NCBI GenBank assembly: GCA_963734495.1
Contig: CAVTHK010000001.1
Coordinates: 32,001-96,000 of the forward strand
Origin: an uncultured Spirochaetota bacterium
GTDB lineage: Bacteria > Spirochaetota > Spirochaetia > SZUA-6 > CAVTHK01
Direction: 5' to 3'
DNA: 64,000 bases
Each line of letters begins with the position of its first letter. Position 1 is the first letter of the stretch. Position numbers and translations under genes: made by a program. The notes below the pieces were generated by a model. It was given only the letters and a program-made list of their open reading frames with translations. It had not been told where the DNA came from and searched no databases. Shown here one piece after another: positions 2,620 through 8,035 of this stretch.

Positions 2620-3561
2620 TCACCCCTCGTCGCCGATGCCGTCCCGGGCGACCTTTGCCGGCGCAGGCGCGTCGGGCAGGAGATGCCGGGGCAGGAAAGC
2701 CATCCCCGCGATGAGCGTCGGCACGACGGCGCTCGCTATGACGACGGCCACGAGGAACGAGTACTGGCCCCGCGTTACGATTCCGTGCGAGAGACCATAG
2801 AGCGCGGAGATCGAGCCAAAGGTCAAACCCGTCGACATCATCAGCGTGTAGTACCATCGCTCACTGCGGTCACGGCGGAACCGCGAGACGACCGGGACGA
2901 GGCCGAAGATCTTTGAAAGCACCTTGCCCGCGAGAAGCGCGACAAACACCAACGGAGCGGCGACCAGGGCCGGCAGAGAGACAAAGGTTCCCGCTCGCAG
3001 AAAGTAGAACGGCGTGAGGAATCCGACCGTCAGAGTCCGCAGTCGGCGAATCCAGTGCGCGTCCGTGCTCGAGAACTCAGCCAGGATCATCCCGATCAGA
3101 TACGCCGGAAGCACCGCCTCGCTTCCCGACCACGCGGCAAGCGCGCCGAGCCCGAAGAGGACGAGGATGACCCACTTGGTCCGGATGGCGGCCGTGCGGT
3201 GGGCGTAAGTGCGGGCCAGCCTGCGCGTCAAGAGCGGAAGGAGCGCAAGCGCAACCGCCGTCGCCACGACAAAGACCACCGACTTCCAGGTGAACGGCGC
3301 GAACAGCAGTCCTAGGGCAATCACAGTCCCGAGGTCATTGACGAAGCAGGCGCCGAGGATGCCCTTGCCGAACGCAGTCTTGTTGAAGCCGGTCTCGATC
3401 ATGACCGAGTAGACCACGGCCATCGAGGTCGTGGAGAGCGCCACGCCGCAGAGCAGGCTGGCGCGGGCGTCCCAGCCCAGCAGGAAATGCGCGATCGCGG
3501 CGCACCCCGCGAACGGAGCGAGGAAGCCGACGAGACCGACCGAGATCACCTCCCTGGCCTT
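2620..3561 (-). pseudogene. Cation:proton antiporter (CPA2/Kef-type), 3' part, interrupted by RIT element
   Basis: Multi-TM protein with ALSTTSMAVV and ACFVNDLGT motifs; resumes KAREVISVGLVGFLAPF directly after the element end. Confidence 0.9.
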
Positions 3562-3566
3562 TGCGG

Positions 3567-3590
3567 CGTTATGCCGACATCGGCATAACG
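3567..3590. repeat. Terminal palindrome of the RIT element
   Basis: CGTTATGCCGA-CA-TCGGCATAACG, perfect 11-bp arms. Confidence 0.9.
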
Positions 3591-3591
3591 T

Positions 3592-3622
3592 GCATTATGC
3601 CGACCGCCGGATTATGCCGACT
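3592..3622. repeat. RIT terminal inverted repeat (ritC side)
   Basis: GCATTATGCCGACCGCCGGATTATGCCGACT, exact reverse complement of 6939-6969; holds two TTATGCCGAC boxes. Confidence 0.95.
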
Positions 3623-3688
3623 TCGGTGGTCCACGGCCTATCGGGTCGCGGTGAAGAACGGTTTTCTCGGCTTGGGCTGGCGGCATAA

Positions 3689-4684
3689 TCAAAGCGTGCT
3701 GAGAAAGGCCAGCAGGCGGTCAGGAGGTCGGTAACGGCGGGCGGCCGCGAGGCTGGGAGCTGTCTTCGCCAGGGCCCGTTCCTTCGCGGCGAGGTCGACT
3801 GCGAGATAGACGTGGGTGGTTTCCACCGACTCGTGTCCGAGCCACAGGGCGATGACCGCGGAATCGATGCCGGCCTCGAGCATCCGAACCGCTCTGGTGT
3901 GCCGAAGAACGTGGGGGGAGACGCGTTTGTTGGCGAGCGAGGGACAGGAGGCGGCTGCGGCCTTGCTGGCATGCCTGTGCAGCCGCTTTTCGACGGCGTC
4001 GCGGCTCATGAAACCGCCACGCTGGCTTGGGAAGAGCGGATCCGTGGGCTGAGCGGGCTGTGCCCTGAGCCAGGCTCGCAGGACGCCGACGGTCTCTTTC
4101 CTCAGCGGGGTCATTCGCTCCTTCCGCCCCTTGCCCATGCAACGGACGTGGGCCCCGGGCCCTTCGAGTTCCAAGTCGGCCTGCGTCAGCCGAGTGATCT
4201 CGGAGACACGCAGTCCGGTCTGCTCGGCGAGTAGGAGCAGAGCGTGGTCGCGGCGGCCGATCCAGCTGGAGGTGTCCGGTGCCGCGAGCAAGGCATTGAT
4301 CTCCTGCTGGGTGAGGAACTCGACTGTCTTTCGGTCGAACCGCTTCTGGGGGATCGCCAGCACGCGCTGGATCAATGCGCTGTGCTCGGGAACCTCGGTG
4401 GCCGCGTAGTGGAAGAAGGCGCGGATAGCCGACAGTCGCGCGTTGCGCGAGCGGGGGGAGTTGTTCCGCTCGGTCCCCAAGGAGTCGAGGAAGGCGGTGA
4501 CCATTGGGGCTTCGAGGTCGGCGAGCAGGAGGTCTGAGGGTTTCTTCCCCAGCTCTTTCTCCGCGAATCGGAGCAGCAGCCGGAAGGTGTCGCGGTAGGC
4601 GGCGATGGTGTTCGGGCTGGCTTGGCGTTGCTTGCCGAGCCGCACCAGGAAGAATGCCTCGAGAAGGGGTGCGAGGGCGCTCAT
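3689..4684 (-). CDS. ritC: Tyrosine recombinase, third of trio
   Basis: GLRVSE, GKGRK, HVLRH, LGH, THVY catalytic set; 331 aa. Confidence 0.92.
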   Translation of the reverse strand: MSALAPLLEAFFLVRLGKQRQASPNTIAAYRDTFRLLLRFAEKELGKKPSDLLLADLEAPMVTAFLDSLGTERNNSPRSRNARLSAIRAFFHYAATEVPEHSALIQRVLAIPQKRFDRKTVEFLTQQEINALLAAPDTSSWIGRRDHALLLLAEQTGLRVSEITRLTQADLELEGPGAHVRCMGKGRKERMTPLRKETVGVLRAWLRAQPAQPTDPLFPSQRGGFMSRDAVEKRLHRHASKAAAASCPSLANKRVSPHVLRHTRAVRMLEAGIDSAVIALWLGHESVETTHVYLAVDLAAKERALAKTAPSLAAARRYRPPDRLLAFLSTL

Positions 4685-5604
4685 GTGTGCACCTCATGGG
4701 AGCGCCGGCAGCGCTCGCTGACCAAGGCGAGAAGCTCCGGAACCGCGGTCAGATACCAGTAGGTCATGGTCGGGTTGAGGTGGCCCAGGTAGGTCGACAG
4801 CAGTGGCAGCCTTGATTCCACGTCGACACCGCAGCGATACCAGCCGATGAGCGTGCGGACGGCGAAGGTGTGGCGGAGGTCGTGGATGCGCGGGCGGCGT
4901 GGGCTGCGGTTGGCGAGACCCGCCCGGTCGATGAGGCGATGGAAGCGCAAATGGACGTTGGCGTAGATGAGCGGCTTGCCGGCTCGCGAGAGGAACAGAC
5001 GCGAGGAGTACTGGATGGGCAGGAGGCGGTCGCGATTGCGGGCATAACGGCCGAGGGCCTCGACGCTCGACGGGTGAAGCGGGATCTCGCGGGACTTGCC
5101 GAACTTTGACCCACGCACGACGAGCAGGCCTCGGTCGTGGTCGAGGTCACGGCGGTCGAGCCTTATGGCCTCGCCCACACGCATGCCTGTGACGGCGAGC
5201 AGGGCGAGAAGGGTCGCGTCGGTAAAGGCGCTGTGGTGATCCCGCTGTGAGCGCGCCGCCTCAAGGAGCCTGTCGATGTCGTCCTTAGAGTAGATGTAGG
5301 GCCTCAGGCGCCGGGATGCGGGCGGCAGAAGATGATGAGGCGGGACCTCGGTGCGGGGGTCAAAGGACTGTGCGTAAAGAGCGAACTGGCGGATGATGCC
5401 TAAGCGTGTGGCCCACCACCGGGGCGATGCCGCGGCCGGTTTGGTAGCCCACTGGAGGGCGAGCTTCGTCGTGATCGAGTTGCTGCCGGCAGCGAGCACT
5501 GAGTTGACGAACTCGTGCAAGCGCCTGCCGACGTGCTGGAGCTTGTACCCCGTGGCGTGACGGGTGGCGAGGTAGTCGTCGAGGATCTGGTGGAGGTTGC
5601 TCAT
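4681..5604 (-). CDS. ritB: Tyrosine recombinase, second of trio
   Basis: GMRVGE, SKFGKSR, HDLRH, LSTYLGH, TYWY; ATG 5604 overlaps the upstream stop (ATGA). Confidence 0.92.
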   Translation of the reverse strand: MSNLHQILDDYLATRHATGYKLQHVGRRLHEFVNSVLAAGSNSITTKLALQWATKPAAASPRWWATRLGIIRQFALYAQSFDPRTEVPPHHLLPPASRRLRPYIYSKDDIDRLLEAARSQRDHHSAFTDATLLALLAVTGMRVGEAIRLDRRDLDHDRGLLVVRGSKFGKSREIPLHPSSVEALGRYARNRDRLLPIQYSSRLFLSRAGKPLIYANVHLRFHRLIDRAGLANRSPRRPRIHDLRHTFAVRTLIGWYRCGVDVESRLPLLSTYLGHLNPTMTYWYLTAVPELLALVSERCRRSHEVHT

Positions 5605-6812
5605 GCCGCACCTCCGGGCCACGGCTGCGCGAGCTCGTGCAACCGGCAGTAGTCCACCTTGGCGTAGATCGCCGTGGTCGCGTGGTGGCGGTGACGGAGG
5701 GCCTGCGCGATCTCATCAAGGGTCGCTCCCCGGCGCAGCATCGTGGTGGCGGCGCTGTGCCGCAGCCGGTGAGCGCCGACCGGTGGCAGCTGGACGCGCT
5801 TGCAGGCGTCCCGGACGATAGAGGTAACAGCGCTGCTGCCGAGTGGGCCGTGGGGGACGTGATGGCCCAGGAACAAGGAGCGCCAGCTCGTCTTCCTGCG
5901 CCGCCGCAGATAGGAGGCGAGCGCGCTGCCCACCTCCTCCAGAAGCGGCATGCGGTCCTCCCGCCCGCCTTTGCCACGGATGAGCAGGATGCCCTCCCGC
6001 CAGTTCACGTCGTCGAGGCTCAGAGACGCGACCTCCTTCGCTCGCAGTCCCATACGAGCCAGGAGCAAGAGGACCGCGTAGTCGCGGCGGCCGAGGGTGG
6101 AGCGCCTGTCGCAGCTGTCGACGATGGCGTTTACTTGCTCGGGAGCGAGGTACTTCGGCAGTGAAGCCATGCGGCTGCCGGCGACCTTGGGGACGGCGCC
6201 CCTGAGGTCCATGGTGATGTCGCCCCGTAGCTGCAGATAGCGCAGGAATGAGCGAAGGCCGGTGAGCGTCGCCCGGGTCTGGTCGACGTTAGATCCCCGT
6301 GAACTGTCGAGGACGTAGCGCTTGACCGTAGCGCCGTCGAGCGAGGACAGATCCAACTCGCCAGACGGTGAGGTCTTCACCAGCAACTGCCGGGCTTCGG
6401 CGCGGTACTTCCGAGCCACACCAGGGGTGAGCCCCTGATCGTGGATCAGCGAGCCCTCGTACTCGCTCAACAGCTGCTCGAGTGGCGTCAGTGGGGAGAG
6501 TGGCGCGGCCGGGGAAGGCTCGGGTATCAGCCCCGCTCCGGCAAGGAAGCGGAGAACCGCAACGAGGCTTCCCCGGCTCAGGAACTGGGTGTAGCCTCTA
6601 TCTCGCCTCGCGCAAAGGAACGAATCGACCTGCTCATCGGACAGGTCCTGTAGCCCGAGACTCTGCTCCTCGAGCCATCGGCTCAGATGACTCGCCACTC
6701 CCAGCAGATTCCTGCACGAGAGGATCGCGTAGCCCTGTCGAAGCAGGTCTGACCTGAGCTCTCGGACGTGATGCGCCAGGGGTCCGGAAAACCGGACGGT
6801 AGGAAACCGCAT
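5601..6812 (-). CDS. ritA: Tyrosine recombinase, first of trio
   Basis: GLRAKE, GKG, HRLRH, LRH, IYAKVD; long N-terminal region; GGGAGG before ATG 6812. Confidence 0.92.
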   Translation of the reverse strand: MRFPTVRFSGPLAHHVRELRSDLLRQGYAILSCRNLLGVASHLSRWLEEQSLGLQDLSDEQVDSFLCARRDRGYTQFLSRGSLVAVLRFLAGAGLIPEPSPAAPLSPLTPLEQLLSEYEGSLIHDQGLTPGVARKYRAEARQLLVKTSPSGELDLSSLDGATVKRYVLDSSRGSNVDQTRATLTGLRSFLRYLQLRGDITMDLRGAVPKVAGSRMASLPKYLAPEQVNAIVDSCDRRSTLGRRDYAVLLLLARMGLRAKEVASLSLDDVNWREGILLIRGKGGREDRMPLLEEVGSALASYLRRRRKTSWRSLFLGHHVPHGPLGSSAVTSIVRDACKRVQLPPVGAHRLRHSAATTMLRRGATLDEIAQALRHRHHATTAIYAKVDYCRLHELAQPWPGGAA

Positions 6813-6938
6813 CGTGACCTCCCTTCCCAACCAGTGGTCGGGACGAGGTCACTATGTGCCAAGCAGCCCGGATTATGCCGCCAAGGGGATCGAGAAAAAC
6901 CCTATCCGCGGCAGGAAAACCGCAGACTCGACCGAGTG

Positions 6939-6969
6939 AGTCGGCATAATCCGGCGGTCGGCATAATGC
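6939..6969. repeat. RIT terminal inverted repeat (ritA side)
   Basis: AGTCGGCATAATCCGGCGGTCGGCATAATGC. Confidence 0.95.
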
Positions 6970-7224
6970 GCGCATCACCTCCGGTTCGAGCTCGGCGCCC
7001 GCGAGAAAAGTGAGCAGGACGGCGCCCGAGGAAGCGAGGAAACGCAGCCACTCGAGGTCCGCGCCGAGGGCCTGGCCCTTTCCGAGCGCCCCGGCCGCCG
7101 CCGCCGCCGCGACGCCGACGCAGATCTCCACGAGGGCGATCGAGACCCTCAGGTGGTAGGCGATGATCGCGGATGCTACGGCGAGCCCCAGCCAGAGGGC
7201 GGCCACGGTGAATGCCTGCTCCAC
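6967..7224 (-). pseudogene. Cation:proton antiporter, 5' part (86 codons)
   Basis: GTG 7224 with AGAGGAG; MEQAFTVAALWLGLA...SIALVEICVG...LLTFLAGAELEPEVMRA, a typical CPA2 N-terminus that ends at the inverted repeat. Confidence 0.9.
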
Positions 7225-7225
7225 A

Positions 7226-7903
7226 TCAGAACACTCCTCTGCGACCTGTCGCGACTTCGATGGCCCGCAGCCACGAGTCGCTCTCTTCCGCGTCCGCTTC
7301 GGCGGCGAAGCGGTAGTCCTGTTTTCTCTGGTACTCCTCGAGCATATGCAGCAGGACGGACAGTTTGGGACGATGGACCTCCATGAGCCGCGCTCGCCGG
7401 CGCTCGTCCGCCTGCCCGGCCGCGACGAGCAGGTGCGGGTAGCAGAGCCCGCCCGACCCCCGCAGCGCTTCGTGCATGTCCGCATCATCCAGCGCGTCCA
7501 GCAGCGTCCGCGTGTTGCGAGCGCGCGTCTGCTCGGCGAAACGGCAGGCAGGGCAGCGGGCGGAGCGGTCCGCAATCGAGGTCCGCCCGCGGCGGGCTTT
7601 CGCGGCTGCCGAGCCGTCTTTCTCCAGCGCGTCGAGGATCCTCCTGATCTGGTCCTGGTAGAGAATCGCCGTGCCCAGCCCGTCGCCGAGGTCGGCAAGC
7701 CGGTGGGCGTGGCGGGCGCAGAAGCCTCCCGACTTTTTCAAGTCGTCGCGGATCGACTGGTCGTTGACCTTCTCGTAGAGAATCCCTTCGAGGTAACGCT
7801 TGACGGCGCCGTCTTCCAGGGCACACAGCGCACAGCCCTTCGAGCCCTGGAGAGCTTCGAGCACCCGAAAGTAGGGCAGATGCTTCTCATGAATCCGCTT
7901 CAA
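7226..7903 (-). CDS. DUF6062-like protein with duplicated CxxC...CxxH motif
   Basis: CALC..YEKVND..GGFCARH and CPAC..GGLCYPH; probable TTG start at 7903 (GGAAGG upstream). Confidence 0.7.
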   Translation of the reverse strand: MKRIHEKHLPYFRVLEALQGSKGCALCALEDGAVKRYLEGILYEKVNDQSIRDDLKKSGGFCARHAHRLADLGDGLGTAILYQDQIRRILDALEKDGSAAAKARRGRTSIADRSARCPACRFAEQTRARNTRTLLDALDDADMHEALRGSGGLCYPHLLVAAGQADERRRARLMEVHRPKLSVLLHMLEEYQRKQDYRFAAEADAEESDSWLRAIEVATGRRGVF

Positions 7904-8013
7904 GTCGGTGGCCTTCCGGTTCGTGCAGGACACGGGCAGGGGAGGCAGGACGCAAGCGCCGGAGGCCGCTTCCGTACGAGAAAGAGCGCCTGCCTGTGCG
8001 ACGCGCCGGCCAA
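7900..8013 (-). CDS. Possible 37-aa leader ORF behind the fluoride riboswitch
   Basis: GGAGG (8019-8023), 5 nt, TTG 8013; its TGA overlaps the next TTG start (TTGA). Confidence 0.35.
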   Translation of the reverse strand: MAGASHRQALFLVRKRPPALASCLPCPCPARTGRPPT

Positions 8014-8035
8014 TGGAGCCTCCTACCACTGCGCG

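Follow-up and report, generated by a model that had tools for sequence, protein, structure and literature searches.

RIT (recombinase-in-trio) elements occur across many bacterial phyla, and in those of Cupriavidus metallidurans CH34 and others, three tyrosine recombinase genes, A, B and C, follow one another with overlapping ends. The same arrangement was found in a stretch of 64,000 nucleotides (nt) from an uncultured Spirochaetota bacterium (NCBI GenBank assembly GCA_963734495.1, contig CAVTHK010000001.1, positions 32,001 to 96,000 of the forward strand), hereafter called the window, where a RIT element interrupts a cation/proton antiporter gene. This copy and the only other one found in the genome are exact circular permutations of one 3404-bp unit, and the element has probably moved with its ends joined before its recent insertion in the antiporter gene.

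According to the accessible portions of the literature, RITs are "around 3,500 bp" long, with overlaps of 4-8 bp between their reading frames (PMC3414803), and their terminal inverted repeats measure 34 bp (PMC10214605, Table 1), while target specificity, empty site and movement are listed as not tested (PMC10214605). The element described here is likewise ~3.4 kb long (unit of 3404 bp), with ATGA overlaps between its genes, a 34-nt inverted repeat and near-identical copies within one genome. In the available text of PMC8138268, RitA is given two core-binding domains and RitC an extra C-terminal helix; the present RitA has an N-terminal extension of ~100 amino acids (aa) with a weak match to PF02899 (E 0.0016, below the cut-off), and the present RitC runs ~35 aa past the catalytic Tyr. 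As for movement, the portion of Nielsen 2017 (PMC5737581) at hand mentions a raised mobilome coverage of ritABC, circles that were not mappable, and hairpins proposed from palindromes of 47 and 51 bp, and that of PMC10214605 describes, for SE and Tn554, a 6-bp junction sequence carried from the donor site.

A second, circularly permuted copy

For the description of the element, "pal" designates a 20-nt palindrome made of two back-to-back binding arms, X the hexamer TGCGCG and Y the hexamer CGTGCA. The body (3372 bp) comprises ritC-ritB-ritA between 34-nt inverted repeats, and body, X, pal and Y together form the 3404-bp unit. In the window copy, the left end carries pal followed by CGTGCA, a piece that is absent from the right end.

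The search for further copies, proposed in an earlier note on this DNA, was run on the genome assembly (18 contigs, 5.38 Mb, 83% complete) and returned one more, on contig C9 (locus L002), inside a DUF222/HNH gene. There, pal and CGTGCA stand at the opposite end, after the hexamer TGCGCG. Once the last 26 nt of the C9 copy (L002 1509-4912) are moved to its front, it is identical to window 3569-6972 over 3403 of 3404 positions, with a sole mismatch (window position 4544) being synonymous in a Lys codon of ritC. The two copies are exact circular permutations of one 3404-bp unit: the window copy is opened at X, with pal on the ritC side, and the C9 copy is opened at Y, with pal on the ritA side. 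Since a rotation by 26 nt gives near-identity, the unit behaves as a 3404-bp circle. The joined body ends are preserved inside each copy, and the junction in the second copy has a 6-nt spacer. A stand-alone pal was also looked for in this genome and none was found, the search returning only the two element copies.

Both copies split their target genes without gain or loss of a codon. The C9 copy interrupts a gene with Pfam matches to DUF222 and HNH endonucleases, between ...NLALL and CTFHH..., and the two parts are joined without a gap in each of the genome's three intact paralogs (on C7, C2 and C13). The target hexamer of the HNH gene, TGCACC on the sense strand, is the complement of GGTGCA and matches Y at five of six positions. 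That of the antiporter gene, fixed by the reading frame and by a conserved Arg-Ala/Thr/Ser, is the complement of TGCGCG and matches X at all six.

The intact DUF222/HNH paralogs lie on C2 (~221.5-222.4 kb), C7 (~420.0-420.8 kb) and C13 (~539.3-540.2 kb), and the one on C7 has an unoccupied TGCACC hexamer at the equivalent site. Tyrosine recombinase genes form a second cluster on contig C2 (~245,000-247,900); they share 27-32% identity with RitA and RitC.

Structure of the element and of its target gene

The features of the window copy and of the gene it interrupts are as follows (positions in the window).

2620-3565, minus strand: antiporter, downstream part, i.e. the last base of a split Arg codon, 314 codons and the stop (PF00999 E 2e-20; matches residues 168-481 of the same-genus homolog)
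3562-3568, no strand: left junction spacer TGCGGCG, 7 nt, i.e. the expected TGCGCG plus one extra G (read directly and compared with the 6-nt spacer of the second copy)
3569-3588, no strand: pal, with centre CA (exact string in at least 119 metagenome contigs)
3589-3594, no strand: inner spacer Y (CGTGCA), between pal and body; crossover hexamer of the second copy
3595-3622, plus strand: inverted repeat at the left end of the body; 3595-3604 and 3612-3621 are two 10-nt arms in direct orientation
3679-3688, minus strand: subterminal third arm, inverted, the partner of 6873-6882 (same layout in the relative L068)
3689-4684, minus strand: ritC-type tyrosine recombinase, 331 aa (PF00589 E 1.3e-34, PF02899; XerD 1A0P E 3.6e-26)
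4681-5604, minus strand: ritB-type tyrosine recombinase, 307 aa (PF00589 E 3.7e-25; ATGA overlaps with both neighbours)
5601-6812, minus strand: ritA-type tyrosine recombinase, 403 aa, ATG at 6812 behind GGGAGG (PF00589 E 9e-32, weak PF02899; N-terminal extension ~100 aa)
6873-6882, plus strand: subterminal third arm of the right end
6939-6966, minus strand: inverted repeat at the right end of the body; its two arms are 6940-6949 and 6957-6966
6967-6972, no strand: spacer X (TGCGCG), crossover hexamer of the window copy (the same hexamer as required by the rebuilt target, sense-strand codons Arg-Ala)
6971-7224, minus strand: antiporter, upstream part, from the GTG start at 7224 through 84 codons to the second base of the split Arg codon (81% identical to residues 83-166 of the homolog from the same genus)
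7226-8029, minus strand: upstream DUF6062 gene, given for context (PF19538 E 8.7e-19; stop one base before the antiporter start)

The element is a member of the RIT family, and nothing found excludes this membership. The earlier note had identified it as such, and the identification stands on three adjacent PF00589 genes, on ATGA overlaps at 5601-5604 and 4681-4684, and on a terminal inverted repeat of 34 nt (3589-3622 and 6939-6972, 97% complementary). Its statement that all three recombinases keep the R-K-H-R-H-Y set was borne out as well: these residues are invariant columns (R256, K280, H347, R350, H373 and Y382) of the RitA/RitB/RitC alignment, and RitC aligns with Escherichia coli XerD (1A0P) across all catalytic motifs with an E value of 3.6e-26, the catalytic residues of XerD serving as reference.

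The rit genes span 3689-6812 and leave ~100 to 160 nt at each end, largely taken by arm and repeat sites. The inverted repeats of the element ends are built from the binding word TTATGCCG, which occurs 10 times in the window, eight of them within the element ends, for an expected number of 0.76 (none of 100 shuffles reached 10). Genome-wide, 16 of its 37 occurrences are within the two element copies. X and Y are complementary to each other except for one G-T pair.

As the earlier note had observed, TGCG is present at both ends of the element (3562-3565 and 6967-6970, read directly), and the excision of 3566-6970 (3405 nt) rejoins a minus-strand PF00999 gene of 399 aa with no stop in either half. 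The rebuilt gene is composed of 84 codons (6973-7224), an Arg codon split over positions 6972, 6971 and 3565, and 314 codons (2623-3564). The shared TGCG is better described, though, as part of a 6-nt spacer, intact on the right (TGCGCG, 6967-6972) and with one inserted base on the left (TGCG+G+CG, 3562-3568). Because of this extra G, the in-frame deletion is of 3405 nt and not 3404; likewise, the circle junction predicted in the note is one G too long, the second copy preserving a spacer of 6 nt.

The two parts of the antiporter were aligned separately to four homologous loci from relatives (L009, of the same genus, L010, L011 and L012). The C-terminal part covers positions 72-367 of the 375 of the PF00999 (Na_H_Exchanger) profile, to which family the protein belongs, and in three homologs the 84 residues before it are matched by the N-terminal part. 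In L009 (79-81% identical to the two parts), L010 and L011, the parts are contiguous with exactly one intervening residue, an Arg in each of the three; L012 aligns only from residue 91 of the C-terminal part and carries no information on the junction. The homolog alignment named in the note as decisive for its junction thus revealed no residue lost or gained in the three informative homologs. Since its halves abut in L009, the same-genus genome (G001) carries an uninterrupted antiporter gene. In the present genome, this gene is inactivated by the insertion.

The insertion is recent, in agreement with the note: the second copy has a single, synonymous difference over 3404 positions, the rit genes are intact, both antiporter halves are free of stops and the gene of G001 is uninterrupted. 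It is plausible that the element is still active.

Just upstream, in TGATGTG (window 7222-7228), the stop of the DUF6062 gene and the GTG start of the antiporter gene are one base apart. This spacing suggests that the two genes may be co-transcribed, in which case the element would lie in the second gene of an operon.

Related elements in genomes of the same order

Diverged RITs built on the same plan were found in other genomes of the same order, and tblastn showed the order ritA-ritB-ritC for those of G007, G032, G019 and G020. The complete genome G007 has three intact copies (L034, L036 and L037), all with pal on the ritC side and all inside an HNH gene, at the motif N-L-[x-x]-x-C-x-x-H-H; the HNH assignment was made by eye for L036 and L037 and is backed for L034 by a tblastn match ending at the junction. 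In G032, which holds an independent RIT lineage, pal is on the ritC side in L039 and on the ritA side in L038 and L040, and in all three, pal and the adjoining hexamer GAGTTG have one and the same orientation relative to the body, which fits a rotation and misfits an in-place inversion. By eye, in all six copies of G007 and G032, pal points to the side of the HNH gene that encodes the C-terminus. It is on the ritA side in G020:C121 and G019:C124, so that, over the 10 full copies from five genomes, each side was counted five times. A decayed RIT, reduced to RitA residues 1-92, is found in G001, where it occupies the same Cys codon in an HNH gene. A RitA search of the genome contigs gave nine loci, one of them close (L043, 77%, on a 3.1-kb contig).

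The pal-side hexamer of L034 is the left-flank hexamer of L036, an identity which would fit a carry-over from the donor like that of Tn554 and SE; with these copies, carry-over of the pal-side hexamer is not separable from spacer homology.

A fourth copy in G007 (L035, G007:C1:3165800-3176100) lacks the normal pal-bearing end, and an 87-bp piece identical to the end of L034 is located ~2.5 kb away; this layout points to a possible rearrangement between copies. In G019:C124, L068 is a relative of low guanine-plus-cytosine content with the same arm word, and it splits the gene of a large P-loop protein (…SGAGKS…YYFGEDDLKN / KFIVIGEK…). L068 has the same hexamer on both outer sides, and the complement of this hexamer on the inner side of pal.

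Distribution of the palindrome in metagenomes

At least 119 metagenome contigs contain the exact 20-nt pal, and all counts in this section are among the matches listed, namely 80 loci with 82 instances. The body lies on one side of pal in 32 instances and on the other side in 24; three are at a contig edge, and 23 show no recognisable body, some of these "orphan" pals being diverged arms missed by the classification rule. The hexamer on one side of pal is the reverse complement of that on the other side at all six positions in 27 of 79 instances, and at four or more in 58. When the far-end hexamer was compared with the pal-side one in 13 complete-element rows (in which L126 and L130, with pal at both ends, are counted twice), they agreed at six positions in seven rows, at five in four, and at four and two in one row each.

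Positions 1-4 of the spacers are variable. Concerning positions 5 and 6, C and A were found in 35 and 41 of 56 outer spacers, and in 33 and 40 of 56 inner spacers, respectively. Ten pal-side flanks were tested against Pfam: nine matched mobile-element families and one had no match. The families are Transposase_mut (two, with the same profile start position), MPTase-PolyVal zincin-like (three, one of them weak), rve-type (three, one below the cut-off) and IstB_IS21 (one).

Several loci of this survey have a layout of their own. Pal and its hexamers are found at both body ends in L126, in direct orientation, and in L130, in inverted orientation; both outer flanks of L130 read as downstream portions of IS256-type transposase genes in a head-to-head arrangement, as though two copies had undergone recombination. 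Bodiless pals between two hexamers (for example L077, L080, L084, L090 and L110) are flanked in mirror image in L077, L080 and L110 and directly in L084. Bodiless pals may be footprints of body loss, and some are probably misclassified diverged ends. Finally, the pal-side flank of L122 resembles the C-terminal part of a RitB-like recombinase (…RHAFAVH…LSAYMGH…), a 70-aa piece with no Pfam match, and this resemblance suggests that one RIT may have inserted in another.

Mode of movement and alternative explanations

The explanation which we regard as probable is that a RIT transposon, moving with its ends joined and able to use either of two recombination cores, has recently inserted in the antiporter gene as an off-target, inactivating it. 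The element would move most simply as a circle, in which the joined region would be a near-palindrome of ~100 bp with two mirror-image cores, each made of a body arm, a 6-nt NNNNCA spacer and a pal arm. Either core could recombine with a target whose hexamer matches its spacer, giving both integrated forms and either orientation of the body. Spacer matching would contribute to the choice of target, and the spacer would at times be rewritten by the target. The usual targets of the lineage would be conserved motifs in mobile-element genes, the antiporter being hit on TGCGCG. The relatives being mostly in mobile-element genes, the antiporter insertion is unusual, which points to an off-target event rather than to a regulatory role.

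Several observations weigh against this explanation. The left spacer of the window copy has 7 nt and not the predicted six; the extra G may have arisen by a later mutation or in an imprecise event, or may be an assembly error in a homopolymer. With 11,354 occurrences of TGCGCG in the genome, hexamer identity alone cannot explain the choice of the site. By eye, the outer hexamers share at most three of six positions in L034, L037, L039 and L040, and such differences in the G007 and G032 copies mean that spacer identity is no general requirement. Among the metagenome matches listed, body arms on both sides of one pal were found in none of 79 instances, and the pal centre, scorable relative to the body in 32 instances, is oriented as in this genome in 20 and the opposite way in 12. 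This split makes the orientation of pal a weak general discriminator between rotation and inversion, and its use as a universal test was dropped. No circle, empty site or joint was found in the assembled contigs of runs X1-X4, which cannot show absence (20 sequencing runs were listed, all as assembled contigs, the best holding 0.28 of the sampled words). Also, both copies might each derive from an unseen third copy.

The two forms of the element could alternatively result from an insertion with fixed ends, without any joined-ends intermediate, and a later inversion of the body in place, between the 34-nt inverted repeats. Such an inversion is chemically plausible, since the body is bounded by inverted repeats that contain full recombinase sites, and the occurrence of the pal centre in both orientations, 20 against 12, speaks for it too. 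We nevertheless judge it improbable, as the rotation is exact here, while the pal centre (two informative bases), the hexamer between pal and body and the far hexamer X all misfit an inversion. The hexamer between pal and body is indeed Y and not the complement of X, from which it is one base apart; pal and the adjoining hexamer misfit as well in L038 and L040 compared with L039, and the location of the copies at different loci requires a transposition step anyway. That the whole arrangement is an assembly artefact, with a repeated 3.4-kb element misplaced in the antiporter gene, is hardly credible: a near-identical repeat in an 18-contig, 83%-complete assembly does invite such an error, but each copy is flanked by both halves of a single gene, and a 185-nt contig of run X1 (6818-7002) crosses the right junction with no difference, though this run may be the source sample. 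Plain target-site duplication was considered as the whole story and rejected, the same hexamer being the unused inner spacer of the second copy, and the survey showing a third, inverted copy of it.

A refinement of the joined-ends explanation, rather than an alternative to insertion, is a single-stranded circle, of the kind proposed for SE elements, whose ~100-nt palindrome would fold into a hairpin with one duplex core and which would be integrated by a single strand exchange and replication, in the manner of CTX phage or integron cassettes. The near-complementarity of X and Y is in line with such a route, as is the rule of mirror-image spacers (58 of 79 with at least four of six positions, among the matches listed). 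So are, in the accessible parts of the two papers, the exonuclease-protected RIT DNA with proposed hairpins of Nielsen 2017 (PMC5737581) and the strand-biased circles with 6-bp carry-over of related multi-recombinase elements (PMC10214605). Mirror spacers are also expected, however, from the repeated use of both cores on similar targets, and the present data do not separate single- from double-stranded DNA; we consider this route rather unlikely. Far less likely still is the idea, put forward in the earlier note, of a reversible on/off switch of the antiporter. The precise junction and the intact state of both gene halves and of the recombinase genes speak for such a switch, but the left and right spacers are unequal (7 vs. 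6 nt), so that the element's own recombination would not necessarily restore the gene exactly. The relatives, moreover, are mainly in mobile-element genes, with a single cellular-gene insertion seen, and the assembled contigs, which cannot show absence, hold no empty site or circle. The off-switch has found no support.

Beyond this locus, the joined-ends explanation leads to a broader and more tentative proposal, which we hold to be possible though somewhat short of an even chance: RITs in general would be hexamer-guided integrating circles, possibly in the form of a folded single strand, which enter a target in either orientation through one of two mirror-image crossover sites around the conserved 20-bp arm pair, and the four variable bases of NNNNCA would be an exchangeable address, matched to the target and open to rewriting by it. 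If so, a hexamer-addressed RIT would be a naturally retargetable tyrosine-recombinase integrase.

Comparison with known systems

Compared with the RIT descriptions in the accessible portions of the literature, three points are new: the exact circular permutation of two copies, the two crossover hexamers and a cellular target, the antiporter gene. No description of permuted copies, crossover hexamers or target families was found in these portions of the RIT literature; Ricker 2013, Van Houdt 2009 and the supplements may hold one. Two permuted copies that differ by one base amount to a natural experiment, fixing the joined-ends junction, the crossover hexamers and both target sites. With this pair, the mechanism of RITs becomes directly testable, as primers for the polymerase chain reaction, reporter substrates and point mutants can be designed. 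The pair also indicates that an element normally located inside other mobile elements can disrupt a cellular gene, here that of a transporter, at a chance occurrence of its hexamer.

With Tn554 and SE/GInts, the element shares several tyrosine recombinases, an insertion without classical target duplication and a 6-bp junction sequence. The third protein of Tn554, TnpC, is not a tyrosine recombinase, whereas all three genes here match PF00589, and SE and GInts need a fourth protein (Tfp/GinC, Srap/GinD), whereas the 3404 bp of the present unit hold only three recombinase genes. The double mirror-image core with a central palindrome is, in the accessible descriptions of Tn554, SE and GInts, not a feature of these elements.

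The inverted arms of 9-10 bp around a 6-nt spacer recall Cre/lox, FLP/FRT and XerCD/dif, and so does the apparently spacer-dependent choice of partner (6/6 and 5/6). Unlike these systems, the element has two back-to-back cores sharing a palindrome, three recombinases and extra direct and subterminal arms, and its targets are without recognisable arms. As to the long imperfect palindrome, which could fold on a single strand to a duplex recombination site, the closest parallels are the attP(+) hairpin of the CTX phage and the attC site of integrons. Those sites are served by the host XerCD or by IntI, whereas the present element encodes its own trio of recombinases, and a single-stranded form of it is hypothetical.

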